64,000 bases of DNA from NCBI GenBank assembly GCA_905178155.1, contig CAJINV010000001.1, positions 14,281,265 through 14,345,264 of the forward strand. The letters are read 5' to 3'. The stretch is from Amoebophrya sp. A120. Lineage: Eukaryota > Protista > Dinoflagellata. Under the pieces are notes generated by a model. That model saw nothing but the letters and a program-made list of their open reading frames with translations. It made no database searches and was not told the origin of the DNA. A program made the position numbers and the translations under genes. Shown here one piece after another: positions 6,001 through 60,000 of the stretch (positions are counted from its first letter, which is position 1; every line of letters begins with the position of its first letter).

Positions 6001-9000
6001 GGAATGAAGGTAGAAGGCATCGAGGGAGTAGTCAAGTGGAATGCCTTCGGGCGCGGCTTTGCCTGGCTGCAATGTCGGTCGTGATCCTGTTCTACTCCTT
6101 GTTGGCGTACTAGCAGGGCTGTTCTGGTGAAAAAAATCCTGTGACGCGAGTGGCTCGGCCAAAGCGTACGCTGACAACGCAGAGAACCAAATGTGGCGAA
6201 AGGCATGCGCGGGTTCCAGTCGCGGCGGCAAGGGTGTGTTGTAGTCCGACTGTTCTCCTGGTACACCAGCATCATCGCCCTCTTCGTTTTCCTGTTGATC
6301 CTCCTCCGAGTCTAGTTCTGCTTTCTTTTTCAGATACACGATCGAGACCATTTCGTCGAGAAATCGCTGATAGCTTTCCTCCCGAAAGGTATCCTCGAAG
6401 CGATACAAAGCTCGCAGTCCGTGTAGGGGTGCCAAGCCAAGAAAGGAGATTTGCTGTAGAAAAGTCCGCTGGAGCATTTTCGTGTCTTCTTCCAGCAGCC
6501 ATTCCGGCGTTGACGTTGTGACCGGAGCAAGTGCGGTATCTGTAGTAGTGTCCTGCTCCTTGTCGTCTTCACCTTCTTCCGATGTTGAGTCGGATTGTGC
6601 GTCATTCTTCATGCTTTTCAGAAGCAGCTTGTGCTTCAACTCCTCGGCCTTCGCCTTCTCGTCCAAGACACAGCACGCTTTGTGCACGACCCGGGAGAGT
6701 AGGACAATCCGCGACACCAGCCCCGCTACCACAAAAGCCAACTCCTTCACTCGTGCATCGCGTTCCACGCCGCGCCTCGTGGAGGCGCTTAGGTGCCCGG
6801 CGAGAAGACGCAGTGGAAAGAACCGGCCTTCGTCGTGCGACAGCCTTCGGGAGTGAAAAAAATCCCGATTTTCGAAGCAGGTCGAAATCCAGAGGAGGCT
6901 CGCGCGGATAAACTCTCTGCAAAAGGGAACCCACCGGTTCCGCAGCGTCAGCAGCGACAGCTTCGTCTCCGCTTGCGCTTTCAAATTTTTGAAACTTGCA
7001 TCGACCAAGCCAGTAAGCGAACGGAGTAGAAGCAGCGCGTATCGATGAGCGGACGCCGCCGAGACAACGTTCGGTGGCTGTTCTTCCACATCAACATCTT
7101 CAGCTCCAAGCAGCCTCCTCCCGGTTTTTTGTCCAAAGTAGAGCGCCTCGGCGCCGATTCCCAAATCATTTGGCACCCAGATCTTCCAGGCATTGCGCTT
7201 CGGGAACCACCGTGCCTGTTCCAACCGGTCTAAACTTCTGGGACTCAAGCCGAGCGTCGCAAATAGGAGGTCGTGCAACAAGTCCCGTCTACACTCCACA
7301 CTCTGCCTCCACGTTAAAGCGGGCCGGGCCGGGTCTAGGGACTTAGGAGCTTTTGCAAGGTCGCGGACGCATAGCGCAAACCAGAAAAGCTCGGGGCAGA
7401 GCGCCAGCTCTTTTCGCACAGCTCGAGTTGTGGCTCGCAAAACCCGCTCTGGTTGCGTCTTCAGCCCGCCGGTTCTTTCCGCGTTGCGCAGGTGCGCGTC
7501 AAAATCAAGTGTCCACGTCTCGACAGACTTGTGAAACAGCACCGAAACGTCTTCGATCAATTGCCCCTGGTGCAGCTCTTGTTGGGCAGTTGTGTGTGTC
7601 TCGTCCTCCAATTTTGGATCTCCGCTAGAGCCGAAAGCGTCAGAAGCAACATCGGACGAGCGCATCCTCTCTTTCAGCACCGCCCAAGTCTTGACCAATT
7701 CAGCCCGCAAGAGTCGCTGAAGTTCAGCTCGAAACTTTTTCCCGTATCTAAACACCTCCTGCAGCGTCTGCCGTTCTGGTGCGTCCTGATCCTCATGCCT
7801 GCCGCGAAATTTACGCAACTGCATCGCTAGTCGCGGGTCCGCTCTATTTCTATGACGAGAGTCTCGTTTTTCGTGATGCTGCTCACTTTCCGATGTTGAT
7901 TCCGAACCAGTGCGACGATCTTCAGTGCTACCGCCAGAAGAGGAACTCGCGTGCAAAGCACCCGGAGGGGCAGTCTCATCAAGAGGCTGGTCACTTCCTT
8001 GCAGTAGCTCGTCGCCCCCCTCGCCGTCGTCGGTTTGGTCTATTTCCTGCTCCCTTTTCTTCAAGCGGCTGCGGTTCGCCAGCGTTTCCGTAACATGAGT
8101 GGAATCCGCCCGGCCCCAGTCCCGCCAAGGCGCGACGCGCATGCCCCGCGTGTAGTTTGACGGCGAAAAAACCCGTAATTGACTTCCGGGCGTGAGATGG
8201 TCGACCACCTCAGCGATGATTTCTTCCACATACGCCTCGGCTTTCCTCGGATCGCTCACATAGCTTGTTGGTATTAGGGGCTCAGCACCATCAGCGTCTT
8301 CTGCACCCGGAATTGTGTCTTTCGAAGTTGTGGGTTTCTCGCTCCTGCTGCTCTTGCTTCCGCTGCGTGTGGAGCAGTTTGCAATGACCTCCTCGACCAG
8401 CGCTTTGCCCAGCACCTCCGCCGGATCGTCGACTTCCGGCCCTACTTCCGGCGCCGGTGGTTTTTCCTTTTCCGCGCGCTCCGCCTTGCGCTTCTTCCGG
8501 GCCAACTCTGCGTCCACCTTCGCCTTCGCTTTCGCCGCAACCTCGCCCGCGCTGAGCTTCCGGGTTCCCGTTTTGGGGTCGATGCGGCCCTTCTTCAGAT
8601 CCTGAATGTACTGGACGAACGCAGCCTCGGCCTTTTCCCGCGACAACTGAACCGGAAACCGCTTCGGTTTCGGCGGTTTGAAATCGGGAAATGCTTCCAG
8701 GTTCCGCTGCTTCACCATCCACGCGGCCTTCTCCATGTCGGTCAGGTTTTGGTGCCCCGTGATCAGCTTCTGCTCGTCCTTGGTCAGCAGTTTCCCGCGG
8801 TGCAGGTCGTATTTCAGGGGGTCGTAGAAGTAGTCCTCCGCGAACCGCTTGTTCCAGCCGGACGGGTCGTTTGACCACTCCTGCCGGTTGAGCTTCTCGA
8901 TCGTGAGCCCTTCCTGCTTCATCTTCGTCGTCACGTACTCCAGCCGTTTTTCCGCCTTCTTCTGCTTGGACAAAAACTTCTATCCTGTGCAAAAGTATCG

Positions 9001-12000
9001 TACTCGTATAAATCCGCTAAAATTTCTATGCAGAATCTGACGGACAAGTCGGTGAGAAGTCGGTTGCGAAGTTGGTTGCGAAGTTGGTGCGGAAGTCGGT
9101 GAGAAGTGGCGCGCGCCACTTCTCACCGACTTCCGCACCAACTTCGGTGAGAAGTGGCGTCGCGCCGCGACATGCTGGCGTCGTTCTCGCCTCGACCAAG
9201 CGACGCGTCGCGTCACTCCGTCGCTGCGAGTTATATCGTGCTCGCTGCTTGCAGTTGCCACTGCAGCTGCAAGAGCTGGAAGGAACAGCGCTGCAGATAA
9301 ATGGAAAGAAGACCGCAGTCTTGTTCTGTCCGTTTATCTGCAGTGCAGTTTCATCAGTTAGCACGACGGCACCACGCGCAAAGCCGTATACAAGAGGCGG
9401 CAGGCCGCGCGACCGTGATTTCTGCGCGCGCGCATCTGTCCTGCGTGCAGCCATCAAAGAAAGAATCGCCGGAAGCGGAAGACAGCTTCCCTCGGCGATG
9501 TGGAGCTGCGCGCGGCTTGGGCGGGCAAGCTTTGAACGCCGGCCATTCTCGCCTGGCGCTGATTAATTAATTGATTAGCTGAGCAGCTAATTACTCAGCT
9601 AATCAATTGATATATTGTCTGCGTTTTATTTGTTTTCACAAAAAAACGCGAGTTTGCGTGCGCCCTACATCAATTAATGCGCAAATCAATAGCTCACTTC
9701 TCAACAACTTCTCCACGCACTTCTCAACAGCTTCGCGACGAACTTCCCGACGCACTTCGCAGCAAGCTTTAAGCTTTTGGAGGCGTCATGCAAGAATTAG
9801 CATGACGCCTCCAAAAGCTCAAAGCTTGCCGCAGAATGCGCCGGAATGTTCGTCGCGAAGCTGGTAAGATGAAGTGCGTAGAGATGTTGTTGAGAAGTGA
9901 GTTATTGCTTTATGCATTAATTGATGTAACGCGCCGCGCTTGCCGCAAAATGCGGCGTCGGCGTGCTTTTTATGTGCAGGACCCCGAAAGTCTCCAGCTG
10001 CACGCGAAAAAGACATTCTCAAGTTATCTTCCGCAAGCTTAGCGCCCGAAGATCACGGGAGCTGATTCGTGACTGCGCACGCGGCCACGAATCGAGGCCC
10101 GGGATATTCCTTCTGAGACGTCCTAGCCGGAAGCCTGTCAGGAGCTTCGCGTGGATTTCAACTCTGCGTCAAGCGTCGGAACAACCGCGGCAAGCGGTCT
10201 ACGCCAACTTCTCAACAGCTGGGAAGTTGGTGAAAAGGTTGGGAAGAAGTTGATCATAAGTTGTGAGAAGTTATATTCATGCCAGTAGCGGATTTATACG
10301 AGTACGATACTTTTGCACAGGATAACTTCTCCCGGATGCCAATGTTCCCGATCGCGTGGGCCAACTCGGGCTTGCGGAACCGCAGCATTTTCGCCGCGAG
10401 TTCCATCTCCGTCAGCTGCTCTTTAGCGTTATCTCGGAGAAGCGCGCGCTCCGCGGAGTTGAAGGGATCCACCTTGGGCGCTGGGCTATTGCGGCTAGAA
10501 GTGCTACTGTGTCGAGAAGTTGTAGCTCCCTGGAGGTGCTGCTGGGGCGCTGAAGATGGTCTTGCGCCACCGCGAAGACGCGGCGGGGGCGTTCCTGGGC
10601 TTCGAACAACAGTGGTCTGCGGCACGTATCTCCCAACGTCGTCGTCCTCTCCTTCTGCCAGGCGCGTGTCGTCGTAGAACGCGGGTCTCGGGGCGGCCAT
10701 CTGCGTCTTCGACCCCGCCGACTTCTTGTTTTTCTTGCTCGTCCGGGCAGGTGATTTTTTGCTTGTTGAATCCGAAGCACGCTCAGAGGAGGAAGCGCTT
10801 TTTTTCTGTTCTTTTTTGGTCTTCTTGTCGTCCGAGGACTTCGCTGGTGACCTGTTAGCTCCCAAACGAGAAGACGCTCTTTTGGTTCCGGAGATAATCC
10901 TCGTTCCCGCTCCGCCACCAAAGTCGGCCGTCGTATTCCCTGCTATTACTCTGGTGGCGCCTGCTCCTGCCTTTGATAGCGGTGTCGAAGCCCCGGACAC
11001 AGATGACGCGAAGCCCCGGCTTGCTGCGCTGATCTCGGTCACGCCCTGGTCAGAATCTTTTTCCTTTTGATCCGAACTCCTCCCGGGCACACCGGGCAAA
11101 GACTTTGCTTTTCCTTTTGCCTTCCTTTTCGCGCCAGGTTTGCTTGTAGTTACTCCGTCGGTCGTACGACGCCCAAACAATCCTCCGAGCCACTGCGTCC
11201 ACGTTTTCTTCTCCGGTTTTTTTTGCATCGGCTTTCCTGTTCCTGATTTCTTCTTGCTTGCCGCTAGCCTTTTCAGATGGTCCAGTTGCCCCTTCTTGAT
11301 AATGTGCTCCAGGATAGTGCGCGGTACCTGCAACCCGTGTCGGACTTCGAACCGTTCTTGTTCATGTTTTGCGTGCGCCCGCAGGTCCTCAGCCGCGAGC
11401 GTCGGAACGCGACCCCGCGTCATCAAGTACGCCTGTTCCATGTCTGAAAACTCTGTCATGGCCAGGACCTTCTGTTCGTCGAGGGTGAACTCGGCCTTTT
11501 TCCTCTCTTGCGCCATCAGCACCGCCTTCTGCATGTCGGACAACCCAGGTAGATCCAGAATCTTTCGCTCCGCGCTCGTAAAGATGGCTTCCATCGGAAT
11601 ACTCTTCTTTTTAGGTTTCTTTTTCCGCCGTTGATTTCCAGTCGTTGCAGCTGCCATGGCGCGCTCGTAAAAAGTATCGGTCCCGCCGATTCTTACCTTG
11701 CGATCGGTCTCAGGCCCGTCAATGTCGTCTTTTTCTCCGTCGATGTCTGCATCGTCATAGTGCAGATCATCGTAGATATCGTCGAACTCATCCGCGTCCG
11801 AGGAAGACACAATCTCCGAAGATACATCCGACCAAACAACGAGCGACTGGTCGAGCAGCCCGGCTGCAACACTTTCGTCTTGTCGCTGCTTTTCCAAAAA
11901 CTTCATTCTGACTTTCGCATCTACATCTGGATGTTGCTGCAGGTTTTTTCTTCTTCGCTGGAATGTTTCAAGCGCGCCCTTCAGGACCTTGTCAATGCGA

Positions 12001-18000: not shown

Positions 18001-20062
18001 TTGGAGAGCGGGTTGACCTTTGTTACGCGAACGATCGGAAAAGATGACCAGTCTAGGGCTAAGCCGAAAACCTTGTACGATTTTTCGCGGACCGAGAGGC
18101 TTCTGTCCTGCAAAACCTCCATGTCTAGCGACTTCCCTTGATCCCAATGCAGAAACCCAAACTTTTTCAGCCGTTTAAAGTCTTCTTCTTGCACCATTTT
18201 GGCCGCAAAGATCCCGAGTAGAAATGGCGGTCGGTGAATGCGGTGCGGCGGCCCGCCGTCTTTGATGTGGACCAATTTCGTCCAATCGTGCGGGATATGC
18301 AGTGAAAAAGTTGAGCAGGTATCGTACTTGAGCGCATAAGTTGCCTGCTTGCAATCATGCCAGATCTTCTTTAGCAAGAACAACATCGAAATTTGTCACA
18401 CAGATTCAGGCAAAACGAGCATAAATCTGTCATGCCAGACTGCAGCTTATACGACTGCGATAACTTGCCCCTCTAGTGCAGTGCATACGGAAGTGCTCCG
18501 GCCAGCTTCGCGCCGACTTTCCCTTGCATCTCGACGGGAAAGCCGGTTGCCCGACCGAGCAAAAGCGTCAGCGGGCGTGTTCCCTTGCTGCTGCACAACT
18601 GCGCCACTTCGAGCTTCTTACTGCCCTCCGCCAGCATTCGGTTCGCCGCAAAAACCAAATCTCCCGGGACAAAGCCCGCCCACTGGGCCCAGCTGCGCGG
18701 ACGAATTGCGCGGATTTTCATCTTGTTCATGTCCAGGTCCAGGCCCAAAGATTGCTCGCCCGTCATAATTTGCAGAAACCTGTTAGCCTTCCGGTCCGGG
18801 AGAAACGTGAACGCGAACGCGTCGGTGGGAGAGACTGGAGCGCCCTTTTTCTTCGCTTTCCTCTCGTCACTGTCGCCGAACAACCGCTCCAACAGCGCGG
18901 CGAGCAGCTTCTGACAGATCGCGTCCTCGGCGTTGACCCCGGGCCAGGTCGAAATATCCTGAATCGGACGACCACCAACCAAAACCAAAATGTCACCGTG
19001 TCGGATATCGGCGTTGCGCGCAAAACTTCCGTCGGGCAGCTGCTGTTTCATTTCAACAATCGGCGTAGGTGTGCCTCTGCTTGTTCCCGTGCTGTCTTCA
19101 CCACTCAGCTTCGCTGTGGTTTCTTCCCGAACGTCCCGTACCGTGACGGCCGGAAATTTGCTCCAGTCGAGCGAGAACCCGAACAAGTCCCACAAACGGG
19201 CAGCCGGAGAAACGCTAGTGTCTTCTAGGAGCGCCCCAGCTGCAGTGGTCACTGTCGTGCCGTCATCGTGGGCTATTGGCTGCGGGTCGAGCTTGTCCAC
19301 GTCCTCTTTGCCGTCCAGCATCACAGATTCGCAACTGACGCACAGAAAGCCGTACTTCGTGGCGTCTTTGGCCTTCGTCACGAAGACCGGCAACAGATCT
19401 TTGGGTCTTGGTAAAGGCTTGGAAGATTTTTGTCCCGGCGGCGGAGCAGAGGCCGGGCGCTGCACATTGCTCGTTCCCGCGGGTGGGCGCGGATTGGAAG
19501 TGCTGGAGGGTGCTGCTGCTGCCCCACCGGCAGGTGATGCTTTGGCTTTCTTTATTTTCGGACCGGACGGCGAGGCCGACTTGCTCCGTGGTCCGGTGGG
19601 CGCGGACACGGCCTTTTTTGCACCCCCACGAAGTTTCGGCTTCGCAAGACCTACTGGCGGCTTCATGTCAGATCCAGGAACAACCGCTGACGCAACCAGA
19701 CGAGGAGCGGCGTCTTCATTAGTAGAGTGGAGGTCTGTTTTTCTCCGTCTCTTTCTTTTTCTTCTCACACGCACTGAATGTCTTTCGGGTTGAACGTCAG
19801 ACGAGGAACCCGAATACAGGTCCTTCAACTCCCGCGCCGGGCGCGCTGCGGTGGCTTCGTCCCCTTTTGCATAATTCGGTGTCGACGACCGCAGCTCCCG
19901 CTTGGTCGCTTTGCGCAGATTGCGCCGGTTGTCCTTGTGCAGGCACAACTTCTGCGCGTTCCAAACTTCATCCCGCACCGCCCGGGGCCAGAGAAGACCG
20001 ATTGGGTCTACTTCTGGTGTCCGAATCTCGTCCGGTGCGATGCCCTGGAATGGGTTTTTCAT
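1..20062 (-). CDS. Giant (>6,100 aa, runs off window start) multi-PDZ-like, low-complexity protein; exons ~20062-18488, 18290-10326, 8976-<1
   Basis: ORF 18473..20071 joins ORF 10254..18386 (GALP|HDWTK) after removing insert 18296-18487 plus one repeat. That joins a third frame (GIREK|FLSKQKK) after removing 8981-10324. The third frame appears open to position 1: no same-frame ORF or stop in the track, and spot-checked lines have no stop. Repeated FGxxLDWxxFPxVxV and LG[IL][ED]...G[LF]xPGDx[LI]xAAN PDZ-like motifs. Confidence 0.8.
9079..9146. repeat. Perfect 68-bp palindrome built from GAAGT-core units
   Basis: CGAAGTTGGTGCGGAAGTCGGTGAGAAGTGGCGC followed directly by its exact reverse complement. 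Confidence 0.95.
9666..9928. repeat. Long imperfect inverted repeat (foldback) of ~260 bp
   Basis: Outer arms TACATCAATTAATGC / GCATTAATTGATGTA; inner perfect 20-bp stem 9772-9791 / 9800-9819 with 8-nt loop; intervening arms largely complementary. Confidence 0.9.
18296..18487. mobile_element. Degenerate introner / non-canonical intron, 192 bp
   Basis: Ends TATGCAGTG...CAGTGCATA; direct repeat CGGGA/CGGAA (4/5); removing 197 nt fuses two ORFs in frame; internal GTATCGTACT and CTGTCATGC motifs shared with other elements. Confidence 0.8.
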
Positions 20063-20201: not shown

Positions 20202-23200
20202 TCAACGGTAACGGAGGCTGTATGTTACCAAATTGTCGAGGAAGACTCGTTTTCTTTCGTTCCATTGGTCCATCCTGGACGCGAAAAATTCAGGCTGCAG
20301 AGTGAACAGAAGCGCCGGACGCAAAATCGTTTCCAGGATGAGGTTGCTCCCCGAGTACCAAGAGACGTGCGGAAAGAGTTTTTTCTGTTGCAGATACAAG
20401 GGTAGAACCTCGTCCACCACCCAGCCGCGCCATTTGCGAGTCAAAGTAATAAGGCAGGTCTGCTCCAACTCCGCATGCGTTTTGGCTGCACTGCCTCGCG
20501 CCGAGGTGGATTTCGCGTCTATTTCGGCCTCGTTCGCAGAAATGCTGATGTCCTCAAGAGTTGCAGTGCTAGAAGCACTGCTGGTCGAGCTTGGGAGTAT
20601 CGCGAGCCTTCTTTTCTTATCCAGGACAAAACACCCATCCCCATCCATTTTTTGCATGGCAAATAGTGGACTTATTTATGCATGTCTTGCATGACAAATT
20701 GGATGGGGATGGGCGTCTTTTCCTGGATATTTCCGAACAAGTCGGTGAACTTGTCGCGTGAAATCGAAAGCCATCAAAAACAAGCACGGACAAAGAAAAA
20801 CGCTGCCGCAAGTTGCTGTCGATCCGGTCGTTCCATTTGATGCTGTTTCGTTGGGTATTGCTGGCTCCTCCGCCGTCATCTGGTCTGGATCGTTCACGGT
20901 GATCTTCGTAGTAATCTCTCTTGGCGGCACGACTTGTGGCCTGTACCGCATCAGCTTCACCAGAAGCCTCAGTACCGCCGACGCTAAGCGCATGACTCTG
21001 TCGAATTCCAACACAAATTCCTGACCCCAATCGTCTTGACTGCTGCTCATTCTTCCGAGGGAATGCATCTGCAGCTCTTCAAAAAGAAGCTTCAGAAGCT
21101 GGTGGACAAAGACGAAGTCAACAGTTGGACTGCCTTCCTTCTTTCGCTGTTCATCTGCCTCGTATGTCGGAGAGGTCGGGGGCTCATGAAAGAGCAAAGC
21201 CTTTGTGAGTTTTTCCTCAAGGAAGCGCATGCGAGCTTCCTGCGAGTGCGAGGAGCGGACGTGCTCCCCATGATCCGAGCCTCCTCGTTCTGTCAGCCCC
21301 GGTATACGTTTCAACTCCAACTGGGCACGGCAGCACTTCTCTACTGAGTCAGTAAAAAAATAACCAGCGGTTTTTGCGTAAACTGATTCTCCGAGCGCGT
21401 GTGGGTCGAACCGCGAGAAATCACAGAACCGATCGTCCTTGCAGTAGCGGAGCACGTCGTGCATGCGTGCGCATACAGGACACACGTACACTGCCGGCGG
21501 TCGTTGGGCGCGGTCCTGGTCTTGGTTCTCAAAAAGTGGATCGTGGTCCTCCGCGACGTGGTCATGGAGCTGCTTGTCCGGCCCGTCTGTTTGCTGAAAA
21601 TCTCCGCTTGTTCGGCGCTTCGCAAGCACCTCTGGGTCTTGGCGGCCGTCTGGCACGTACAGGAAATTTCTTGCCGCGCCGAAATTGGACGTCGACTCTT
21701 CTGGAGGCAGCCACGTTGCACGCATCGCAGGCTCATCGTCAAGAAGATCAAGCCCTTGATAGTAACGGGACGGCAGCAACGCCGACGGATCTTCCACTGC
21801 TGTGACCTCCTCCAGTAGATGCTTTTCAACATAATTTTGGTTTCCTGGCGAAAAACGTTCGTCCTCATTTTTTCGACCATTTGCATTTTCTGCTTCCCCA
21901 TCCCCGCTCTCCTCAGGCTCGCTGGTAATTCCCAAAGGAGCTCGGCCACGAAGCTCGGCAAGCAGTTCCCGACGAAAAGCGCGGAAGCCGGATTCCTCCT
22001 TATCGAAGCCTTTGCCGGGACGAGTTTCGTGATTTCGGCGACCGACTGAAAGTAGCGGTGCCAAGCTTCCTTCATCTGCGCTGCTGGATGTTGTCCGAAA
22101 GTTGGCTCTTTCATCAACGTCCTCGTCTCCACCTGCGTCGTCATGGCGCGACCCGTCCGTTGCGTAAAGGTAGACCTGTTTTTCGTGTGCCGTATATTGC
22201 GGCTCCGATGATTTTGTTTCTGGTGCGTCTGGGAAGTCCAGCACGGGTGCGAAACCGCCAGTCAAGTTCAACGTTCTCGCCAGCAGGCTTGTGACAGGCA
22301 GGTCGCGCGGACGATCGTTCAAAGCCTTCGCTTCGTTGTACGCTCGACGGTCCATCAGCGGGTCAGTCAACGTGGTTTGCTGCAGGGCCTTGCTTCCCGG
22401 GCGCTGAAAAAATGAGCTTTTCGCATTCAACGCCCGGAGGTCCGGCGAAGGTTTCCGCTGTAGGTCGTCGTCGGAGCTGTCTTTTTCTTCTTCCTCTTCT
22501 TCTTCAGCTTGCCGCCTCGCCTTGTCTCTGTCTTCGGCCTTTCGGTCCAAGCCCTTACGAATCTTCCACACTTCGTGGGCCCTCTGGTACTGCGCAGTAG
22601 TGCCCTTATCTGGGCTGCAGATCTCTCGTCTCTCTTGCTCAAGCACGTCCTGGACGGAGGGCGCATGCAGCTGGTACTGAAACGCTTCGTCGTTGGTGAA
22701 TTTCTCCCAGGGTGCTGCAGGAGGTGCTGTCGCTGCAGATACGGATGTCAGTCGTCGTGGGAAATGTGCGCTCGCGCTGTCGACTTCATCTGCCTTCGCA
22801 ACAGCGCTCATGAAGTTGACTCCGAGAGCTTTAACGCGTCCACGAGACAGACTACTGTTGCTCTTTTTCGAGAAGAAATCCCGCGCGCCTTTTTCTTCGA
22901 TGACGTCCCCTTCGCGCTGCTCGATCGCTTCAAGGATCTCAGCATCCTTTTTTTTCTGCTCCGCAGCCGTTGCCGTGACGCGGACGCGTGGCTCCCGGTC
23001 GTCGACCGAGTTCTCCTCTCCCGAAGACAGCTCGATTTGACGTTTTCTTTCCTTCGTCGCGAATTCTGCGGGCCTGTTCTTGCCAGAAAAAAGCCCACCA
23101 CTGAAATCATCCGCGAGTTGCGCGAGCTCGGCCGCAACGGCCAGCGCCTTAGCTGTGCGAGAGCGCTGCGGGGTAGATGGCGGAATATAGTCGTCTTGCG

Positions 23201-29865: not shown

Positions 29866-29883
29866 CGACAGGCTCATCCGGCG

Positions 29884-40270: not shown

Positions 40271-43200
40271 CTATCCACCGAAGCCGACGCTTTTCACTTC
40301 CTCTGCATCCGACACCTCAAATCTCGGCGATGCGGCTCCGCTGGCTGCAGCAAAACTTCTGTTACTCGCTCCTCCATCATCGTCGTCGAGTAGAAGAGGT
40401 ACTGATGGTGCTCCCTCGCCTTCCACCTTCTGCGCCAGAAGATTTCCGTTGCGGTTCTTTAGGCCTGAAGATGTGTCCCCCACTACAGCTTGCTGATCGA
40501 CTTCGGCTTGCTGTGTTGATATTACAACCTCATCTTCGTCCTCGGGGTCCGGTCGAGGAGGCCGCTGTGCTGTTTTTGCAACTGCTGCAAGATCGTCCTG
40601 CGATACGTCTACAACTACGCTATCCGGACTCATAGAAGTAGTTGCAGTCGCGTTTATTCCCTCTGCTCTATCAGCTTCAGCTCGTTCTCCGCCACCTCGT
40701 TCTTGCGCCTGCTCTTGCACATCTTCTTCATCGTCCGGCTTTATGTTCTTCAAAGCTTCTGGACTAGGAAGCGGGACGTCGTGGCGGCTGAGGCGCTTCC
40801 CGTGCCGATCCAGAAGTTGGTCGCGACACAGCTGGAGAATGTCCACCTCTGCGCCGTCGTCCTTATGCATGGCGACGAAGACGGCCGCCGACTTGCGGTG
40901 CTGCAGCGCCTTGCCCCCGGGCAGCACGTGCTCGAAGGCGTTCTTGCGGTTCGCGTCGGACAGCATGAGCTCGAGGTCCAAACTGCTGTAGTTGTTCGCG
41001 TTCATGCCTTCCTTGTCCGACTTGGATTTGTTTATGTACTGGGGGGCTTTGTAGCCGCGGAACGTCCTCTTGAAGTAGAGCGCCGCGAGAAACCAGCGGC
41101 TCCGCTTCGCGAGCGCGCCGCCGCCCCGGGCCGTGGCCTCCACGCACTTGGGAAAGTTGTCCTTCCACTCCTTCACGTTCAGCATGCCGTCGCCGGATTC
41201 GTCGCACACGTCAAAGATCACCTTCGTGTAGAAGATGCACCGCTCCAGGTCCAGGTCGCCCTTGATGGTCTCTACTACGTACTTGGCGACGTCCTCAATC
41301 AGCAGCAGTTGCTCATTCGCCTCGTCGTCCTCTTCGTGCTGGTTGGACTCCACCTTGTGGGCCGTGTGCCGCTCGGCCGACGTTTGCTCGAGCCGCTCCC
41401 GCCGGTCCGCCTCGGAGGCGTAGCCGTACTTGCGCGCGATCCACTTGTACAAAAGCGTCAGCTCGTGGTCCCGCAGCTCGCAGGGCGCCGCGGGGTCGCT
41501 GACCGCCACGTGGAGGCTGTTGTAGAGGAAGAAGTGGTCGGAGTTCGCCACCAGCACGTAGCACCACAACATCCAGATGAGGGGCGGGAGGGCGGCGAGC
41601 GCCATCTGCAAGCCGAGAAACCCGTACACCCCCACGCCCAGCCAGTTGTCCTCCCCCGCGCAGAGCTGGGCGGACACCACGGCGATGAAATAGCACTGCG
41701 GCACGGTGCGGCGGCTGACGCGGTCCAGGTCGTTCACCATATGGATGTGTCAGAATCAAAAGCGACAAAATCGAAAGATTTGCGATGCATAAAATGTAGG
41801 GCACTGAAGGCCTGTATTGGGGAGCAGGCAAATGAAACCGATTGCAAGCCTGTTTAGGGGTACGCCCTGCGCTGTCAGAGTAGCATGACAGGAGCAGTCT
41901 TCTTTGCCTAAACAGCATGACAGACTGGCCTTGGGTGCTCCCGAAATTTGTCATGCGCCACTCGGAAACTGAGGCTCCGACTGGTATCGATTTTGTGCAT
42001 CACAAATTCTTCGACTTTGACGATTTCAATCCTGACGCTTCCATACACCACCAGCGGGCCGTACTTCTGCATCAGCAGTTCGCCGACCATCACCGCAATC
42101 ACGCAGGACGCGTTCATCACGGTTAGGTAGAGAAGCAAGGCCTCGAAGTAGGAAATTTCCGTCATCGTGGTCGGCGCCTCTTCCACCGCGTTGGCACGGA
42201 AATTCTGCAGTGCGATGTAGGCGAGAAAGCCACTCATGAACCGGGGCATCAAGTTGTGCGGCCCGACGGTGAAGGTGGAAAACGCAAAGGTACCCAGCAG
42301 CGTGGCGGGCAGGGCCACCCGGTACATCCACAGACTCGCGTCGCGCTCCACCTCCGTGACGAGGTTCACACTCTGGTGGTCCCGTCGGACGTACGCGGAG
42401 TGGATCGGCCACGTCGGGTTCCAGTTCATGGAGTAGACCTCGTTGTTCGGAATCCCCGGGTGCTTCTCCCCGGGCGCGTAGCGTTGCTCGAACAGCAGCG
42501 CCGCGGCGCGCTCCGCGTCCGTCGCGAGCGCGGGCTGGTACCCGCGCCACGGGGGCACCAGGTGGCTCCCGCTGCGCCACACCTCGAAGTCGTACTCCCA
42601 AAACAAATCGGTGTTCGCGTTTTCAAACTTCGCGGACAGCGCCTGTCGGTCGTAGGGGTAGTAGTCCCAGAAGGGGGTGACGGGGCAGTCCACGGCGCGC
42701 ACCTGGTACTCGTAGTACACGATCGGGTACCGCACCTCCGCCAGGCGCTTCCCGACGGCCTCGAGCTTGGCGCAGTCCTCCACGGTGACTTTGGGAAGCC
42801 AGATGAGCAGGTCGGCCTCCAATTGGTCCAGCACTGCGTCGTGGTACACACCGTTAGTCACTCGCACGCGGTCGTCCTTGTACATCTGGGTCACGGTGAA
42901 GTAGGCCGTGAACTGCGTCTCGTCGAACTTGTCAAACTTGTACCAGAACACGTTCGCGAGCGCGGATATTTGTCCGGACGAGCTCGGGCCGAAGGTCATC
43001 GCGCGGGTTTCCTTCACGTTGCACTTCTGCCCCAGGAACCCGGGGTTGCACGCGCAGTAGCCCTCCTCGAAGCCGAGCTTCGGCACGTCCATGCACTTCC
43101 CGAAGTTGCACTCAATCTGGTCGAAGAAGCAGGGCCCGGCCTCGTACGCCAGCGGCAGGGTGGTCTTCTGTCCCGGGCTGCGGAGCTGCGCGACGTGTGC

Positions 43201-49579: not shown

Positions 49580-50397
49580 GGATTCGTTGATTTAGGTGGT
49601 GCTTTAACTTTCGCAAACAACACAATCTAGTGATTTTCAGTGTAACAATGATTATTTTGATAAAGTATGTTCGATCTTCAGGTTTTGTTTTTGGAAATCA
49701 TGTTCATGATCATGCGCCCATAGGAAGGGCCTTTATGTTGAGGATAACGTTAAAGGGAAAAGGAATAAAAATACCCAAGATCTGCATGCGCAATATGGAA
49801 ATGTAGTCGTGACGCTAAGATATTATTTTTTTTGAAAACTAGATGCAAAAGCAAAACAACCTGCGCGTGCTCCTCGTGCATTGACCGACAAACGATCCAC
49901 GTGCACACCCATGAGGCGGGGCATGATACTACGCACTCGCAACGAAAAGCGAGGGCACCATCACGAGAAACCGACTCATCATTTAAGCCAAGTGTTGTAC
50001 TACCGATTGCGCGACTTTGGCTTTCGTCAGCACCGACAGCGACAACATATTTTGGTACAGATGATACCGAAAGTTGCACAGGAGAAGATCATATCGACCA
50101 TAAAGTTACCGAAACTAGAGTGTTTTTTCACGAACCGATGTTCACCCTTGTCTCCATGGGTCAGAGTCAGTTCGTTGTCTCAAGGACGATTGTAGATGTA
50201 AACAAGGGCTGCAATGTGCCTGGAGTCAGTTTCGCAACGCGGATAGGAAGAACCGTGACGATATGTGTTGCTCTCGTGGGAGTTCTGATACTGATTCTAT
50301 TCATTATGTGATGCGTCTATGTTTAGTTGTCTTGCACTTGTATGCGACGTAGACACTCATCAAAACATATCATGTTAAGGTCCTCGTACATCTTCCA

Positions 50398-52903
50398 CTA
50401 ACCAGGATTCTGGACGCTATGACCCGCTAGGCCAGCACGAATCTCTTCCTCCAACGCACCATCGCGCTGCAGGCTGTCGCCGGTAAAAGCCTCACCCGTG
50501 ATTGGGCAGACGTCGCCACTGGCCGCAGCCCACGCTTGCAGCGTGGCAAGTTCGTAGAAAAACAGTTCACCAGTGCTTGGAGACAGAAACCGGACAGGGT
50601 TTGTCATAATTCGCCCATCAATGTGACAGCGCCAATGAGGCGGAATGGCGTCCGGGTCCATCATGCTGAGCGACGAGTTTCCAACGTTTTGAAGAAGGTT
50701 TGGCTGTTTATTTTCATCTGGGGCTGAGACATCTGACTTCCCCGCCCCTGCTGTGTCGTTTGCTATTGAGGAGAGCACGGCCCCCACATGCGTCTGCTCA
50801 TCAATCGCGACGACTGCCGTTGAAGCCTCCAAGAGAAGAGCTGGGTCGTCGCGGTACCTCTGTTGCGTCTCGTAAAATTCAAGTCCCGGAGGCGGAAAGT
50901 CCTCGGAGCTGTGAACCATTCTCTGAGGACTGCTTACCGGTTCGTCGTCCGTTTGGCGAGTGTGGACGTCATAGGCATCGCCCGCCAGCTGTTCCGCGCG
51001 TGCGGCTGCTGGTGCGCCGCCAGCGTGCTGGTCACTATCAGCTGCGTCGAACAGGAACTCGTCAAACTGCGCTGTTGCGGCGTGCTGTTCTGACCAGTAC
51101 TCTGCGACGTCCTGTTTTTTTCTGTACACGTAGAACCGACTTAGCCAGGGGATGACCACCCGCCAAAACGCATGGGGATTCGCGGAGCAGTTGGCGACAG
51201 GCGCAAAGAAGGTTTCGTACAGATATTGCTGGTGCATCGCCTGCTGTTCCTCCGTGGCGTTCGCTCCGGTGTCGTCTTCCAGCGGAATGGTGAGCAGCAC
51301 GAGTCGTGCGTGTGCCGCTGGCTGCACTTCCCCAGCGAAGTGATGGAACGACCAGTAGCGGGGGGTGTTGGAGTGCAGCGGGCCGCGATCCTGCACGAGC
51401 AAATCTTCGGGAAGCAGGCTGCCTTCCATCACGATCCGGGGGTCGAGCAGCTTCAGGGCTAGCAGCGCGTCTAGCATTTCCGGAAACAGCTTGTCCCAGG
51501 GCGAAACCACTTTTCCGCTGAAAAACAGCTTCTCGTGCACAAAATCCACTACGTGCTTCCCGTACAACCGCAAGTGTCTCTTCAGCCGCTTGAAGAAAGT
51601 TTTGTGCTTCGCGGTTGCCCACAGGACATACCTCGGGTCGGTCAGCATGTCACACATCTCCCTCGCACAGCGGCACAAACACGAAAACACCACTCGAAAT
51701 TCCTCACTACGAAGGCGAAGTTTCTCGCTTTGGTAAGTGTTAGCATTCGCCTGCGCCTTCGCGTTCGGCGTTGGTGAAGACATTACTTCCCCAAAAGACT
51801 GGTATCCCATGAGGTTCGCTTCCTCGTCGTCGCTTTCGGCGTAGGCTTCGTGAAACAGCACCTCGGAGACCCGCAACATTTTGTCCAAGAGTTCCTCCTC
51901 CACGAACGCCATCGACAGTCTCCGTTTGAATTCGTACAAATCGTGCAGCGCGCCCGTCTCTTCGGCTACTCTGGTTTGCCGCTTTTTCGCCACGGCATCT
52001 GCGCCCTTCAGATTTTCCTTCGCGACCCACAGTTCCGCGACGCTGCGCGCGATGCAGGGCTCCATGTTGAGCAGCAGGCGGGCCACCGCGACCGGAAACC
52101 TCGGTTCGTGGCCGCAGAGCTCCAGAAACATGGAGCCGGAGAGCGCGCTGCAGTTCAGACACTGGCACAACACGCGCCACATGGCCTGGCAAGTGAGCCT
52201 CCCGGCAGTCCCGCTGAAGGCCGCTTCGCCGCCGCCAAGCACCACCTCGCGGAGCACATAGTCGAAACTCTCCGCGATTTGGGCAAGCAGCAGCTCCCCG
52301 ACCGTTATCGAGTCCGTCGTCTCGGTGGACGCACTGGCCAAAATCCCCAATAGCTCCGGCGCCGCGGGATCCGTGGGCTGTACGTTATTCCTTGAAAAGA
52401 AGGTAACCATCCCCAACCCCATATCAGTCAACTTTTTGCATGACAAAGACCACCGACGACCTGGCACTTTCTCCACGCCTAGCATGACAAATTGGATGGA
52501 AGTGGTTAATTTTCAGGGAATACACGTGGTCGAGTTCGAACAGCAAGACCAGACTGTTGAACACGTGCAAAAACGGCTCCGTCGGAAAAGCCTCCCCGAA
52601 GACAAACGCCACGGTCTGAACGCTTTTTCTGTGCGCTTCGACCAGCGCTGGTAGGGCGCTGACCACGACCCGCAACACGTCGCGCGCAAACCGGTCTTGC
52701 GTCGCTTGATACGTTTCCACTAGACCGGCGTCGGCGGAAAGAATGCGGCCCATCGCTTCCTTGATTTCGGAGGCGTCCTCGATTGTTTGATTTGGATTTT
52801 CACCCACTGCATCTGTACCTCCGAAGAACTCAACCTCGAATACTTTGTACAAAAGGCCCAGCTCCAGCTGCACCACGCCCGCAATGCGGCCCGAACCAGC
52901 CAT
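50398..52903 (-). CDS. U-box domain protein (putative E3 ligase), ~787 aa, two exons
   Basis: Junction ELDHV|QPTDP after insert removal; C-terminal U-box PPHWRCHIDGRIMTNPV...YELATLQAW...CPITGE; start chosen at AAAATGG (52903), upstream extension possible. Confidence 0.8.
52386..52522. mobile_element. Introner / non-canonical intron, 137 bp
   Basis: TIR TATTCC(T/C)TGAAAA...TAACCA; direct repeat TACGT/CACGT; removing 142 nt fuses ORFs 52424..53185 and 50398..52485; two GCATGACAAA motifs. Confidence 0.88.
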
Positions 52904-53877: not shown

Positions 53878-55890
53878 TCAGAACGACCCTTTCCGCTGCG
53901 ACGTCGTGGGCAGCGTCAAGCGGTAGATTTTGGAGAACTCTTCCGGCGACATCGCGAACGCGGCGTTCGTCTGCGTTGACACGACGACGTAATCACCGTG
54001 CTTCAACGTCTGCATCTCCCCCCAGGGGGACAGTAAAAACCTCGCCGCGATTTCGGTGTCGCTTTCCTGCCAGATACTGGTGAGCTGCCCCAGGGCATTG
54101 TGCGTTAGCCGCACAGCTTTGATGGGGGACGTCGGCGCATAGGTTTGGTATCCGATCACCGGGTCGAAGCGGCTCTCGAATTCGACCTTGAAGAAGAAAA
54201 AGAGCTATGTTGACTATGTTGATAATTTGTCTAGTAAAATGAAGAACAACCACGCCCAAGTGCACCTGCACATTTTCCTCATTCTTCACACAAAATGGCA
54301 TTTCCAAGAAATTTTCATGTGCGACTCAGCTTTGGAAGCCCAGTACCCCTCTATCCAGAAGATACTAGCACTATCCAGATGTTGAACATACTAGCACTAT
54401 CTGGTACTGGTTCTGCTCGAAAATAAAAAGATGATGAGTACAACTGGTGCGTTGAAGATGTATACCGATCCCATTTCAGTGTTCGCTTCCTTTTCTTCCT
54501 TCGATGCGAGTGTGTACATGCCACCACGGCCTGCAGGACCAGATCGTTTCGCTGTGAAGAAGGCCGTTGCTCGGTCTCTCAACTCGTACTCCCCTGCTTG
54601 TGCTTGCTCCGCTGGTCCCGAGGCGGAGGTGGACAACGCCCCTTGAGCTGAATTTGTTTGACCGCCAGCCGTAGTTCTCAGCCGGTTTGCGTCTTTCAGC
54701 ATACTGTTGACAACAGTAGCCAGCCGCTTTTGTTCTGCACGGATGACGCGGTCGATGACTTTGTCCATAGGTAGCTCGTCGTCGTTCATTAAGTGATCCA
54801 TTAGGCGGGCCAACTTATCATTGAATTGGTGCGGCCCAAGAGGGCGGGATACAGCTTCTGCACCCGGAGACGATGCGGAAGCTGCCTGTGCGCCAGTTTC
54901 TCTTACTTTCCCCACCGCAGTTGTACTGCAGGACACTGGTTTTTTGTTTTTCGGACTTCCGGGGAGATATGCAACTAACCCAGGATGCAAGCAGCGGTAA
55001 GGTTTATCTGAAGCCACTTCCCCTGGCTGCAACCACCGGGCCGTTCTGGGAAGGAACATGTGAGAGATCAACTCGTTTGCGAACGATGGACTTGTCTCAC
55101 TACCAGCTGTTGATGCGCCGCCCTTGTTGCTTTCAGGATCAGGAAAGAAAGGAGACGCAGACGGCATAGCGACATTTTTGCTTGTTTCTGGTGCCAGATC
55201 AAGTTCGAGGGGCAGCACGAGGTGGCTGCTTTCCCTTGTCATCTCGGCTTTGTCGACTATGTCCTGGTACATTTTTGGCGGCGGCTCCAGAAAATTTTTC
55301 GTCGGGAAAAGCGCCTGCGTTTTCAAAAATGGCGGCGCGATGGGAAGCGAACTGCCGCTGTTCCCTCTTCCCGCATTTGCAACATAACTGTTGGAATACG
55401 TAAGATCCGAGGCACGTGGTGCTGGTATTGCTACTGGGCGAGATGAGAAGCATGCTGTTGACTGACGGTCCTTTGATCGCACGTAGTTCGTTGCCATGCT
55501 TGCAACACCACAACTGCCAGACAGAAACAGCAGGGGACGGTAGTCTGCTTGTGCATGATCCTTGTTTCCTGCATAGTACTTACTTTTGGATGATCCACTT
55601 CCGCTGCCTTGTTGGTCAGCGTTGCTTAGGTTTGCGCCCTCGAGTCCGGTCTCGCTCTCTGCGACGGGTGGGCCGCGCGGGAGCCTGTCGTCCAGAAATT
55701 TCTGCAAACGCCGCTGCTTCGGGATCAGGTTGCGGGCAAAGTTACGGCGGACTCGGTACAGGTGCGCAGCTTTTGCAGCAGCGAAAAGCAAATCGGGATT
55801 GCTAGTAGGATTGCTGTACCAGGACACGGAGAAACAGGCGAGAGACACAACGACGCGAACAAGAGACAAGAAATTCATCGGGACCAACAT
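53878..55890 (-). CDS. Hypothetical protein with signal/TM-like N-terminus and C-terminal PGDYG-like domain; exons 55890-54466 and 54186-53878
   Basis: Phase-0 GT-AG intron 54187-54465 (TCG|GTATAC...TTCAAG|GTC) joins ORFs 54397..56046 and 53878..54159; C-terminus PWGEMQTLKHGDYVV...MSPEEFSKIY. Confidence 0.6.
54187..54465 (-). other. Canonical GT-AG intron, 279 nt
   Basis: Pyrimidine tract before AG, phase 0. Confidence 0.7.
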
Positions 55891-57070: not shown

Positions 57071-60000
57071 CTACGAGGAGTTTATGGCCGCCGACAAAAG
57101 GGCCGCATTGGCATTCGTTGTTTTCGACAATTCCGGGCCCCCCGGAGGTGGGGGAAACTGATCAGCCCCTTCCTTCGCCGCGTCTTCATCCGGTTCGGAT
57201 CGGTCAGACTCGTGATCAGAGTACTCTTCCTCGTCACTGCTGGTCTCGAATTTGGGGGTTTCCTTTGCCGCCCCCGACAGTGCGGGCATCGTCTTCGATT
57301 TTCGCACTGGTGGCGGCTTGGGTACCGTGGGGTCCTTGCGGTTTTTCCCGGACGCCAGTCCCGCGTTCGCCCGCGCCTTCTGCATCATCTTTTTCAAGCC
57401 GAAGAGAAACTCCTCGCGTTCGATCTCGTCGCCGTCCGCGTCGATGAAGCCGTAGAGCATGTGCGTGTTCTGCCTGTGGTAGTGGTATTTCGCGACCGCT
57501 GCGTTAAACTCCTCCATGGACAAGCTGCCTCCGCCGTCCTTGTCCAGCCAGTCCCACACTTCGGGCAACGACGCCAAAGTGAACGTGTCGTTGTCGAGGA
57601 AGTTGGAGGCCGTGTAGAGCAACGGCGGGAGCTGCGCTGCGGCCAGATTTCCAGTGGAGTTCGTCGCCTGCACTTCGGCGTCGTGTTTACTGTCCTTATC
57701 CGTGTTGGATTCCACCTTCGGTGGGTACCCGATGATCATCGTTTTTAACAAGTTTTTCGTCAGGTTGTCCGCTTTTTTTCGCCGCTCCCGCGCCGCGATG
57801 TCCGCCGACCGCTGCGCCTCCTCAATCAACTCTTTTTTCGTTTTGTGTCGCGGAAACCCGGCTGTTTCGCTGTCCCCCAGCGACGCGCCGTCGGCAACAG
57901 ACTTCGGGGATTTCGGGCGGCGGCCGCTGGAGGCGGTGCCGGGTCTCGACGAGAACTCCTCGGGGATGATGAAGCCGCGCTTTTCCGCCTTCATCTCGAC
58001 CGTGATCTTGAATTGCAGGAAAAACAAGAACTCCTCGAGCCCTAAAAACATCTCGCTCCAGAGGTCGTTCAGCTGTTTGAACTCCGCCCAACTGATCGTC
58101 CCCTCGCCACCCCGGTCCAGAAACCGGAAGAACGGCGTGACCTTTTCGATCAAGGTTTTCGAAACCGACAGCGTTGCCAGCTTCTCCAAGACGTTCTGCA
58201 GCGTGATCTGCTGTGTCTGGAAGCGGTCCAGAAAGCGAAACGCGCTGGCCAGAGAGTCGAAGTTCTGCAGGAAGTACTGCCCCATGTCCAGAACGACGCC
58301 GGGCACTTCTTCCAAGGAGATCCACCACTCGATCTCGGCCTGAGGAGGTATTTTCTTCATGATCGACATGTTGTCTTCACACAAATTTTAGATCTTCAAG
58401 AACATGCGTGCTACTGCGACTAAGTAGTTGGTCGCAACCGTAAGTAGTATTTTATTCACGTTGACGTTTCAGCCACTCTCATTGTCATCTTCATCTGCAT
58501 GCATGAGTGTGCATCTTCGTAGTTCAGCATCAGCAATAAAGTGCATCAAAGTCACCTCATCATCCTCGACGTTTTCTCTTGTGTTCCAGCAACCGTAATC
58601 CCGGGCCATTTTTAACCTTTCCTTGATGATCGCGAACTCCGGCGCGCAGCAGTACGTCACGGTCATCACCCCCAGATTCGGCGGGTCCGTTTCCCAGGAC
58701 CGCGGGATGCCGTACGTCAACACGTCCGGCTGTCCGTCGTAGTCCTGATCCCACGTGACGTATCGAAAGGAAAAATTCCCCCTCCCCATATCAAAACGAA
58801 ATCTCTGATGCTGGATCTGTGTACACCAATCAGCTTTGTATTGCAGGGAGGCATTGCGGCCAGATCCCCAGGCTATGCAGGGCCGTATCGGTCTAGTTGT
58901 TCAGCATGGCAAACGGCTTCCCTTTAGGCCCAACAGCATGAGAAACCGCTTCCATAACGGGGGACGAAGCTTTTGCCCTTATCTTCTTCCAAGACAAATG
59001 TGATTTGTGACCTCAAATCAGCAACACAAATTTTCGGAAACATGCATTTTCGATATGGGGAGGGGGAGTTTTTCCTTTCGATATGACGTCAATGATGTTT
59101 TCGCCCTCCTCGTGGGATTCGTACGTGAACTATCCACAGTAAATTTCCTGTACACGTACAAATGCGTCCTCTGCATGGCAAAACTTGGCCTCGGTCCTAG
59201 TTTAGCATGACAAGTTTCACACTTCAAATTGGGGAAATTTGTGACGCATCTTGTACATGTACGGGAAATTTGTATTGCATATGAACAACGCGATCAGACA
59301 CAACCTGTCCTCGTTGTAGCGGAAATCCAGCCGGAAAGTGTAGTTCTCCGGCTGCACCCAGGGGAGCATCCCGAAGGAGCCCAATCGCGGGACGATCTCA
59401 GCCTGCCACGTGGAACGGTAGACGTATGGATTGCAAAAGTATCGTACTAGTATAAATCGCAATACAAATTTTTCCAGAAGGAAAAATGGAATTTGTAATG
59501 CTGATTTCGCTACGAAACAAGATTTGTCATGCATGATTGCAAGTAGTACGAGTACGATACTTTTGCACAGGATAAGACGGCGGCGCGGACAATCTTCTCG
59601 TTCAGGTACCATATGGATTGCAAATATGTCTGGGTCTGGAAGAATGCAACTTGTCGCGCTGAATCAATCTGAATGTGAATCATGTGAAAATCTGTGTTGC
59701 ATGATTGCCAAAAGTTGTCTACTTTTGACCTAATCGAGAGGCAGTTTCTCATGCAGAAGAGGCATGAAGATAGGACTCTCACAGAATCTGTCATGCTATG
59801 TCCTACATACCAGACCTCGTGGGTCATGGAAAACCTGCATGACAAGCCTGGCACTCTTCCAGACACAGACATATTTGCATTTGATATACCAGTCCACTGT
59901 GCGGTTCACCAGCGTGATCAAGACGTCCATCATAACGGCGTCGTCCGCTGTGAACAGCATGAGCAAGCGTCTCGCCTGTCGGCACGTGATGTAAAACCCG

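Follow-up and report, generated by a model that had tools for sequence, protein, structure and literature searches.

Ten transposon-like TAT...ATA inserts in the 64-kb window (the whole stretch of DNA that was analyzed) behave as non-GT-AG introns: six of them are absent from RNA contigs, and removal of each element together with one copy of its flanking 5-bp repeat restores the minus-strand reading frame of the host gene in 10 of 10 cases, as had been claimed in the initial annotation of this DNA. Three junctions suggest that the cuts likely have a fixed position, 1 nt ahead of TAT on one side and 4 nt past ATA on the other. The reading that we prefer, with a probability of about one-half, is that these are transposase-made insertions taken out of the RNA by a relaxed U2-type spliceosome cutting at fixed offsets. 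Terminal inverted repeats (TIRs), a constant 5-bp duplication, high copy number, and lack of coding capacity identify the inserts as MITE-like, non-autonomous introners of the type known from Amoebophrya A120; the element class, its TAT consensus, and an example of the 5-bp repeat have already been published (PMC7789003, Fig. S19).

All ten elements were recovered where the initial annotation had placed them, each opening with TAT and closing with ATA (TAT at 20 of 20 ends, extended to TAT-N6-8-AAA at 15 of 20). The flanking 5-bp repeats are perfect in seven cases and carry one mismatch in three (18296, 20618, and 52386). When the TAT..ATA pairs of the window flanked by a 5-bp repeat with ≤1 mismatch were ranked by TIR score, these elements were the best 10 among 133 (scores of 31 to 60, with 25 for the next best pair); 100 shuffled windows yielded a total of 7 pairs at a score of ≥31 and a maximum of 32, i.e., 0.07 expected per window. 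Sliding the junctions across the repeats gave GT-AG at 0 of 60 positions on each strand, just as stated originally. Summed contig depth over the element bins is 16,000 to 108,000 versus ∼25 in the flanks. At least two further elements in the window, at 28466..28688 and 34926..35256, have decayed repeats. A third overlooked one is probably located at 38439..38893 (455 bp, minus strand, no repeat): taking out 460 nt there opens a 928-aa ORF, and the TIR score of this candidate is inside the shuffled range. A generic scan for inverted plus direct repeats with loose thresholds returned 239 pairs, chiefly due to chance, and the candidate 29919-30165 was dropped, as RNA contigs read straight through it.

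The properties of these elements were further examined in a second assembly (134 loci, 351 kb) that contains 346 of them; four window elements fall into its families, and the 59425 element belongs to the largest one. Among 288 TIR-picked pairs, 203 had a perfect repeat at 5 bp, compared to 1 at 4 bp and 0 at 6 to 9 bp, so that the target duplication is invariably 5 bp long; it shows no preferred bases, and the elements are inserted in both orientations. Taken with the TIRs and the copy number, this duplication upholds the transposon origin initially proposed for the inserts. The terminal TAT is better conserved than the 5-bp repeats: of 948 TAT/ATA sites, 18 (1.9%) deviate from the consensus of their family, versus repeat mismatches at 57 of 790 (7.2%), a comparison that covers 158 copies of families outside the search pattern, sets a one-copy rate against a two-copy rate, and ignores base-specific mutation rates. 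The 5' and 3' ends are equally conserved (AAA at one end only, 12 versus 9), and on this count a better conservation of the 3' end, hinted at by three old window elements, was dropped. The elements also share a 10-bp motif, TTTGTCATGC, with a spacing of 31 to 33 bp. No autonomous partner with a transposase was noticed in the 134 loci, where the ORFs of long copies were judged by eye; family 38 of A120 (PMC12130899) is one candidate for it. Pfam searches gave no match for 7 ORFs from the long window elements 8981 and 36296 or for the insert of the latter, for which all atlas scores were <0.8, and searches of Rfam and viral contigs returned no match.

The window elements are all on the minus strand. 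Three of them, 8981..10324 (1344 bp, perfect 30-bp TIR, repeat ACTTC, predicted intron 8977-10325), 18296..18487 (192 bp, decayed TIR, repeat CGGGA/CGGAA, predicted intron 18292-18488), and 20618..20729 (112 bp, repeat TTTCT/TTTCC, predicted intron 20614-20730), fit, judging from frame, a single ORF of >7,290 aa in a giant PDZ-containing gene, which would include a GT-AG intron that begins at 20228. The host genes therefore probably number five and not six, as counted initially. Element 41740..42045 (306 bp, repeat CACCA) lies in an ANF-receptor-domain gene, where its removal leaves a 1355-aa open frame, and element 36296..38040 (1745 bp, repeat CTTGG) consists of 41740-family ends flanking an insert of ∼1.45 kb. 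A U-box-like gene contains element 52386..52522 (137 bp, repeat TACGT/CACGT), and an EF-hand/LRR gene contains four, 58761..59083 (323 bp, repeat TGACG), 59131..59281 (151 bp, repeat TGAAC), 59425..59574 (150 bp, repeat AGACG), and 59612..59886 (275 bp, repeat TACCA).

A retained element would cause a frameshift or add a stop in 10 of 10 cases in the window and in 217 of 221 in the second assembly. Since in-frame GT/GC..AG alternatives exist ≤40 nt from every one of the ten elements, a restored frame by itself left room for cryptic sites; their use is ruled out by the RNA contigs for the elements that these contigs bridge. The 18296 junction restores an L|PxxW motif and is gapless in many, not all, homologue alignments (P0002-P0026). 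The sole match of the host protein in the search was from Amoebophrya A25 (46%), and the A25 orthologue P0001 has no indel at the 36296 junction. Together with the motif match, this similarity points to an Amoebophrya other than A25 as the source of the window, probably A120 or a close relative. Protein searches with the 41740 gene and the giant gene returned nothing in the first rounds, and a later search with the giant gene found only paralogue-level PDZ proteins, none of them spanning the 8981 or 20618 junctions.

Direct evidence of precise removal comes from element 36296, which is exactly missing, as a 1750-nt intron, in 4 of 4 runs of one RNA sample (joint 36290>38041, ambiguity 5); the runs that lack it also skip GT-AG introns. 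The runs X3 to X6, contigs of one sample, were taken as RNA by guess, backed by four skipped GT-AG introns, and the canonical intron 54187..54465 (minus strand), skipped by an X3 contig, serves as a control that X3 is spliced RNA. Other canonical GT-AG introns seen in the contigs include 58340..58555 (minus strand, 216 nt, EF-hand gene), 60196-60477, 31702-32012, and 35811-36181, so that normal introns do coexist with the elements, as had been noticed at the outset. Five more elements, 58761, 59131, 59425, 59612, and 52386, are missing from RNA contigs by exact length or contig start. Subtraction of the first four with their repeats (919 nt) and of the 216-nt intron leaves exactly 413 nt, the length of the X3 contig; an RNA contig resumes at 59887, just past the 59612 element, and another one at 52524, not 52523, beside the 52386 element. 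Removal is thus seen in RNA contigs for six of the ten elements; the introns at 8981, 20618, and 41740 are predicted from frame and that at 18296 from frame and homologues. Elements 18296 and 20618 have essentially no contig cover in X3 to X6, the 41740 exons have none in X3, and 8981 and 38439 lie beyond the intervals compared with the contigs, which says nothing about expression. The raw RNA runs X9 and X10 contributed only 2 reads each.

Both decayed elements are spliced as well. Element 28466, whose transcript ends TAC..ATA align as a TIR and whose repeat is gone, is removed by the joint 28461>28690 (ambiguity 0, one X6 contig, depth 11.4) as a 228-nt intron, 28462-28689, which has the ends GT..TG and is in frame and stop-free. 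Element 34926, with the repeat CTTTC/CCTTG, is removed by the joint 34920>35257 (ambiguity 1, 4 of 4 runs of one sample) as a 336-nt intron, 34922-35257 or 34921-35256. False junctions could arise through template switching by reverse transcriptase, which typically takes place on a hairpin accompanied by a short direct repeat. However, such an artifact is extremely unlikely, given that the repeat at these two junctions measures 0 and 1 nt, and given the loss of frame upon retention in the window and in the second assembly, and the gapless alignment of the spliced product with homologues.

The initial annotation had left open the choice between RNA splicing and DNA excision. In the DNA run X1, element-exon junction contigs are found at flank depth (22 to 37 versus about 25), and a 16.8-kb DNA unitig, 42019-58789, which may be the source of the window itself, is unbroken across 52386. 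There is no empty site among the DNA contigs, which drop rare variants and may sample one stage. Because the spliced contigs lack the elements and the DNA contigs contain them, the evidence leans strongly toward removal at the RNA level; rare DNA excision is still compatible with the contigs. A programmed, IES-like excision before transcription by a domesticated transposase would agree with the TIRs, the 5-bp duplication, and the helically spaced internal motif, all of which point to a DNA-acting protein. In addition to the DNA contigs, the exact removal of 28466, where no repeat remains to anneal, and the lack of the TTTGTCATGC motif in 28466 and 34926, both still spliced, speak against this scheme; dinoflagellates are not known to have a germline/soma split. 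We consider it highly unlikely.

The position of the cut can be expressed as k, the number of upstream-repeat bases kept in the mRNA. The decayed elements place it because their repeats have diverged: k is exactly 4 at 28466 and 4 or 5 at 34926, and the contig start indicates k≤4 at 52386. The register is based on these three junctions, the unambiguous one being a single contig of a single run and an in-frame intron beginning with GT. At L053:681-994 of the second assembly, k≥2, as k≤1 would put a stop into a frame that, judging from its motif, is probably aminotransferase-like. Two stop-codon counterexamples to k=4 (L020:1348 and L072:3115) were judged frame misassignments, by a modest margin in the case of L072. 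A codon-usage test of the register gave a Fisher p of 0.10 and a mixed outcome with strict frames. In the description of A120 introners, the splice position relative to the hairpin is called variable or unknown, and Table S4 of Farhat et al. lists NT-xx in 9 of 9 top A120 classes (PMC7789003); this listing fits k=4 but could also be produced by aligner tie-breaking and is not counted as support here. At the inferred register, GT-AG is found in only 7 of 221 elements of the second assembly, and intron positions +1, −1, and −2 show no base preference with codon position controlled (166 elements, p of 0.6 to 1.0). Phase-0 introns number 85 of 166; a symmetric target preference accounts for most of this excess (45% expected).

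In the preferred reading, a putative transposase or integrase that binds the TTTGTCATGC motif would insert the element via 5-bp staggered cuts, and the transcript would later be cut 1 nt before UAU and 4 nt after AUA. Of the upstream repeat, the mRNA would then keep bases 1 to 4, and of the downstream copy, base 5, so that the original target is regenerated precisely, whatever the site and orientation of the insertion. The UAU would occupy intron positions +2 to +4, like the GUAU/GUAC donors of the same genome: of the five canonical introns checked, three begin with GTAT, one with GTAC, and one with GTGA, and 28466 has turned into an intron that opens with a GTAC donor and does not close with AG. 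Neither +1 nor the 3' AG would matter to the spliceosome, end-to-end pairing would hold the two ends close to each other, and AUA would set the 3' cut. A joint loss of GU and AG is coherent because the 3' AG is read via pairing with the 5' site and the branch A (10.1101/212811). In A120, the U2, U4, U5, and U6 RNAs were found and U1 was not detected (PMC7789003); it is also the U2 spliceosome that takes out the TIR introners of Fritillaria (10.1101/2025.08.15.670264). The introns studied here do not have the GU/GC donor and AG acceptor of U2 introns, and the absence of any +1, −1, or −2 preference leaves no trace of GU/AG recognition, which counts against a spliceosome. So do the symmetric ends and both orientations, which a symmetric non-spliceosomal enzyme would also yield, the tolerated 5' variants TAC/TAG (5 of 7), mirrored in part at the 3' end (GTA, 2 of 4), the lack of a significant excess of G.U over A.C in the transcript sense (216 versus 181, p of 0.09), and the predicted folds of decayed elements, in which TAT is not paired with ATA (P of 0 to 0.34).

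The same elements could also be removed, in the same RNA register, by a separate machinery, such as an endonuclease that recognizes the paired TAT/ATA ends and acts together with an RNA ligase. A machinery of this kind has been proposed for the nonconventional introns of euglenids, and we view it here as a real, though less likely, possibility. The complete freedom of the bases at +1 and in the 3' dinucleotide, the symmetric conservation of the ends, and the occurrence of either orientation speak for it, as do the euglenid introns themselves, in which the spacing between a paired motif and the cut is constant but differs on the two sides, and which come out as circles (PMC12501133; PMC11282704). 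Against it stand the position of UAU, which in this register falls precisely on +2 to +4 of a donor, and the hybrid look of 28466, where a GTAC donor is combined with an acceptor of the element type (Euglena hybrids are reported to be rare [PMC12501133]); neither the window nor the 134 loci showed a candidate enzyme. The likeness is in the inverted-repeat-paired ends and the fixed, unequal offsets from a paired triplet; euglenid introns have CAG at +4 to +6, CTG at −8 to −6, and a purine opening the next exon, whereas here UAU is at +2 to +4 and AUA at −7 to −5 with no exon preference, and the euglenid signature N3-CDG...CHG-N5-6|R is not found at the element ends. A broader reading, which we regard as rather doubtful, posits that A120-type cells have an additional splicing code blind to the surrounding sequence, N|N-UAU...AUA-NNNN|N, which relies solely on the ends of the transposon and, through a 4+1 split of the duplication, repairs any insertion exactly, whatever its site and orientation. 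A dedicated non-spliceosomal enzyme would carry it out, and dozens of otherwise unrelated families would be moved by one putative TTTGTCATGC-binding transposase with sites three helical turns apart.

Similar introns are known from other lineages. Those of Fritillaria borealis are likewise MITE-derived and non-GT-AG, with a TIR and a duplication, in the absence of the minor spliceosome, and are handled by a U2 spliceosome with a divergent U2AF; they prefer AG-AC and AG-AT borders and a TAC target (PMC11282704), while no border or target preference was seen here. Introners of Micromonas, Aureococcus, and Polarella are also non-autonomous, with TIRs, a duplication that straddles the splice site, and restored mRNA length (PMC9860276; PMC11282704), but they supply or co-opt GT/GC/GA and AG, in contrast to the rarity of GT-AG in our set.

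Introns of this class number in the tens of thousands (PMC7789003; PMC11282704). A fixed 1+4 register, if true, would turn seemingly random splice dinucleotides into one rule, explain harmless insertion at any site in either orientation, settle border annotation, show where to seek lariats or circles, and narrow the candidate splicing mechanisms; the shared TTTGTCATGC motif could be used as bait for the missing transposase. The host of these elements is a marine parasitic dinoflagellate. The suggested link to Amoebophrya introners holds, as the elements match those described for A120 (Farhat et al. 2021, PMC7789003): non-GT-AG introns validated by RNA-seq, with a TIR starting with TAT, 7 variable nt, and AAA, direct repeats of 3 to 5 nt, many families, and no transposase inside. 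The elements of A25 have TTA ends. In contrast to the published range, the duplication here is strictly 5 bp, with three junctions that fit one register, and precise removal extends beyond the published size window of 40 to 1000 nt to an intron of 1750 nt.

The ten TAT...ATA inserts with terminal inverted repeats (TIRs) and a 5-bp direct repeat that were listed in the initial annotation (8981, 18296, 20618, 36296, 41740, 52386, 58761, 59131, 59425, and 59612, named by their start positions) are all present, with the repeat perfect in seven and carrying one mismatch in three. Among the 133 TAT..ATA pairs whose 5-bp repeat has at most one mismatch, they rank as the 10 best (scores of 31 to 60; the next one scores 25), and 100 shuffled windows yielded 7 pairs scoring ≥31 in total. 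As had been claimed, taking out the element together with one repeat brings the host frame back in all ten cases, and sliding the junction never produces GT-AG borders. Keeping the element breaks the frame in all ten. The minus strand carries every long ORF of the window. The host genes, previously counted as six, are probably five, as three elements fit what is probably a single PDZ-containing ORF of >7,290 aa (positions 1 to 23738, minus strand), whose homologues are large multi-PDZ proteins with 29 to 40% identity. The remaining hosts are an unnamed gene (928 aa), an ANF-receptor-domain gene, a U-box-like gene, and an EF-hand/LRR gene with four elements. Positions 4 to 7 from each element end are the most variable and often mismatched between the ends (e.g., GGAT versus CCTG), predicting an internal loop beside the terminal TAT/ATA. 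At 53149, close to where the U-box-like gene begins, lies an unpaired end-like TAT-N7-AAA for which no partner was found.

In-frame cryptic GT/GC-AG pairs are located near each of the ten elements, so RNA evidence is needed beyond frame restoration. Contigs from X3 to X6, runs of one sample whose RNA label is a guess, skip four GT-AG introns and therefore behave as spliced RNA. Element 36296 and exactly one repeat (1,750 nt) are missing from these contigs in 4 of 4 runs, and the spliced product aligns without gaps to its orthologue P0001 from Amoebophrya A25 (46% identity). One X3 contig covers 58338 to 59887 in 413 letters, the exact remainder once the four elements with their repeats (919) and one GT-AG intron of 216 nt are taken out; its resumption at 59887 excludes an equal-length cryptic pair at 59612. 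A second contig restarts at 52524, after 110 non-contiguous letters, at element 52386. Joining the exons across 18296 recreates an L|PxxW motif, which is gap-free in many homologue alignments; for 8981, 20618, and 41740, removal is predicted from the restored frame. The initial annotation had left the choice between RNA splicing and DNA excision open. Element-exon junctions are carried by contigs of the DNA run X1 at flank depth, a 16.8-kb X1 unitig crosses 52386 unbroken, and the summed depth over element bins is 16,000 to 108,000, with the reservation that X1 is possibly the window's own source and that contigs drop rare variants. Removal at the RNA level is thus strongly favored (probability of about 0.9) and excision from DNA is very improbable; that the joints are reverse-transcriptase artefacts is less credible still.

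The element class is already known: in the accessible text of Farhat et al. 2021 (PMC7789003), A120 introners have TAT + N7 + AAA inverted repeats, 3- to 5-nt direct repeats, about 29,850 copies, and RNA-seq support, which agrees with the link to non-canonical introners proposed initially. According to the same text, U1 was not detected in A120 and the removal mechanism was left open. The legend to its Fig. 3 terms the border position variable or unknown, whereas here the duplication is strictly 5 bp and the cut apparently fixed.

Where the repeat is perfect, the cut position is hidden. Two decayed elements, absent from the initial list, are informative. At 34926-35256, where the repeats have diverged, the position of the RNA joint is ambiguous by a single base in all four runs, and the mRNA retains 4 or 5 upstream-repeat bases (k). 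At 28466-28688, with no repeat left, the joint is unambiguous (one X6 contig, depth 11.4, short side of 195 letters): the intron begins 1 nt before TAC and finishes 4 nt after ATA. The contig start at 52386 implies that the fifth base of the downstream copy is kept, so that k would be at most 4 under the leftmost-joint convention, and a second-assembly element (L053:681-994) needs k ≥ 2 to avoid a stop. In this small sample of four sites, k = 4, a cut 1 nt before TAT and 4 nt after ATA, is the only value that fits all. The segment at 28462-28689 is a stop-free, in-frame 228-nt intron (GT..TG) within a LON/RING gene, and its retention is possible without breaking the protein.

Scanning another assembly with one TIR gave at least 134 loci (351 kb). 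Among the loci listed, picking by TIR only gave 288 TAT..ATA pairs, 203 with a perfect 5-bp repeat and 47 with one mismatch; perfect repeats of 4 bp occurred once and those of 6 to 9 bp never, and many of the other 38 pairs look like mis-paired neighbors. The refined set of 350, minus 4 with ≥3 mismatches, comprises 346 elements in 43 families from these loci. Strand calls within the listed loci are concordant (105/105), and both orientations are present in most large families (43:70, 25:22, 8:8, 6:6, 8:5, 4:6, and 5:4), with two small families at 6:1 and 6:0. At one locus (L078:270-2300), two copies of the 59612 family, almost identical and oppositely oriented, are separated by ~1.5 kb and together imitate a single long inverted repeat.

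The anatomy of these elements suggests that a transposase or integrase acting in trans inserted them with a 5-bp stagger. With k = 4, the element would supply U-A-U at intron positions +2 to +4, as in the canonical donors of this genome (GTATAC twice, GTATCC, GTACCT, and GTGACT); in 28466 the borders have diverged to a GTAC donor and a TG acceptor. Removal by a relaxed U2-type spliceosome has about an even chance, and a separate cut-and-ligate machinery is a tentative, somewhat less probable rival. In 166 elements from the listed loci, repeat bases follow the codon-position background, neither a G at intron +1 nor an AG at the 3' end being preferred; GT-AG at k = 4 occurs in 7 of 221. Both ends are conserved alike, and neither this symmetry nor the absent border preference separates the spliceosome from the cut-and-ligate machinery. 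In 158 listed copies of non-bait families, the TAT/ATA ends deviate from consensus at 1.9% of sites versus 22.5% in the interior and 7.2% mismatch in the repeats (the latter a two-copy against a one-copy rate, base-specific mutation rates ignored), which suggests that the terminal TAT/ATA are kept under selection after insertion. Phase 0 is in excess at k = 4 (85 of 166 listed elements), and C shows mild enrichment among the three exon bases that directly follow the repeat (at +6, 56 versus 37 expected; uncorrected p = 0.002, 21 tests).

The interiors share a motif, TTTGTCATGC/GCATGACAAA (≤1 mismatch); of its 27 window matches, 22 fall within the ten elements, which make up 4.7 of the 64 kb. 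It is present in 338 of the 346 listed second-assembly elements and in all nine family consensuses, which otherwise barely align; same-strand copies are 31 to 33 bp apart in eight of the nine, and motif positions change at 10% versus 24% for other interior sites. At ≤1 mismatch it was not found in 28466, 34926, or 8981. Since 28466 and 34926 are still removed from RNA, a mobilisation signal, putatively a DNA-binding site with copies some three helical turns apart, is likelier than a splicing signal. No transposase was found within the long elements of the window or the 134 loci listed (Pfam, atlas, and locus ORFs by eye). The fixed register and the motif may both be new and can be tested: neither was found in the accessible text consulted, which includes passages of PMC7789003, PMC12130899, PMC9860276, PMC11453091, PMC12005148, 10.1101/2025.08.15.670264, PMC11282704, PMC12501133, and 10.1101/212811.

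The 41740-family element at 36296 contains ~1.45 kb of no assigned origin (36360-37800), with no Pfam match, no atlas match of ≥0.8, and none in the 134 loci listed; the full 1,750 nt are still precisely removed. The interiors of two long elements (9030-10270 in the window and L001:620-1430 in the second assembly) are rich in short subterminal repeats (GAGAAGTT-like; GAGAGG/ACCTCT-like), also hold nested inverted repeats, and look like putative foldback elements nested in introners.
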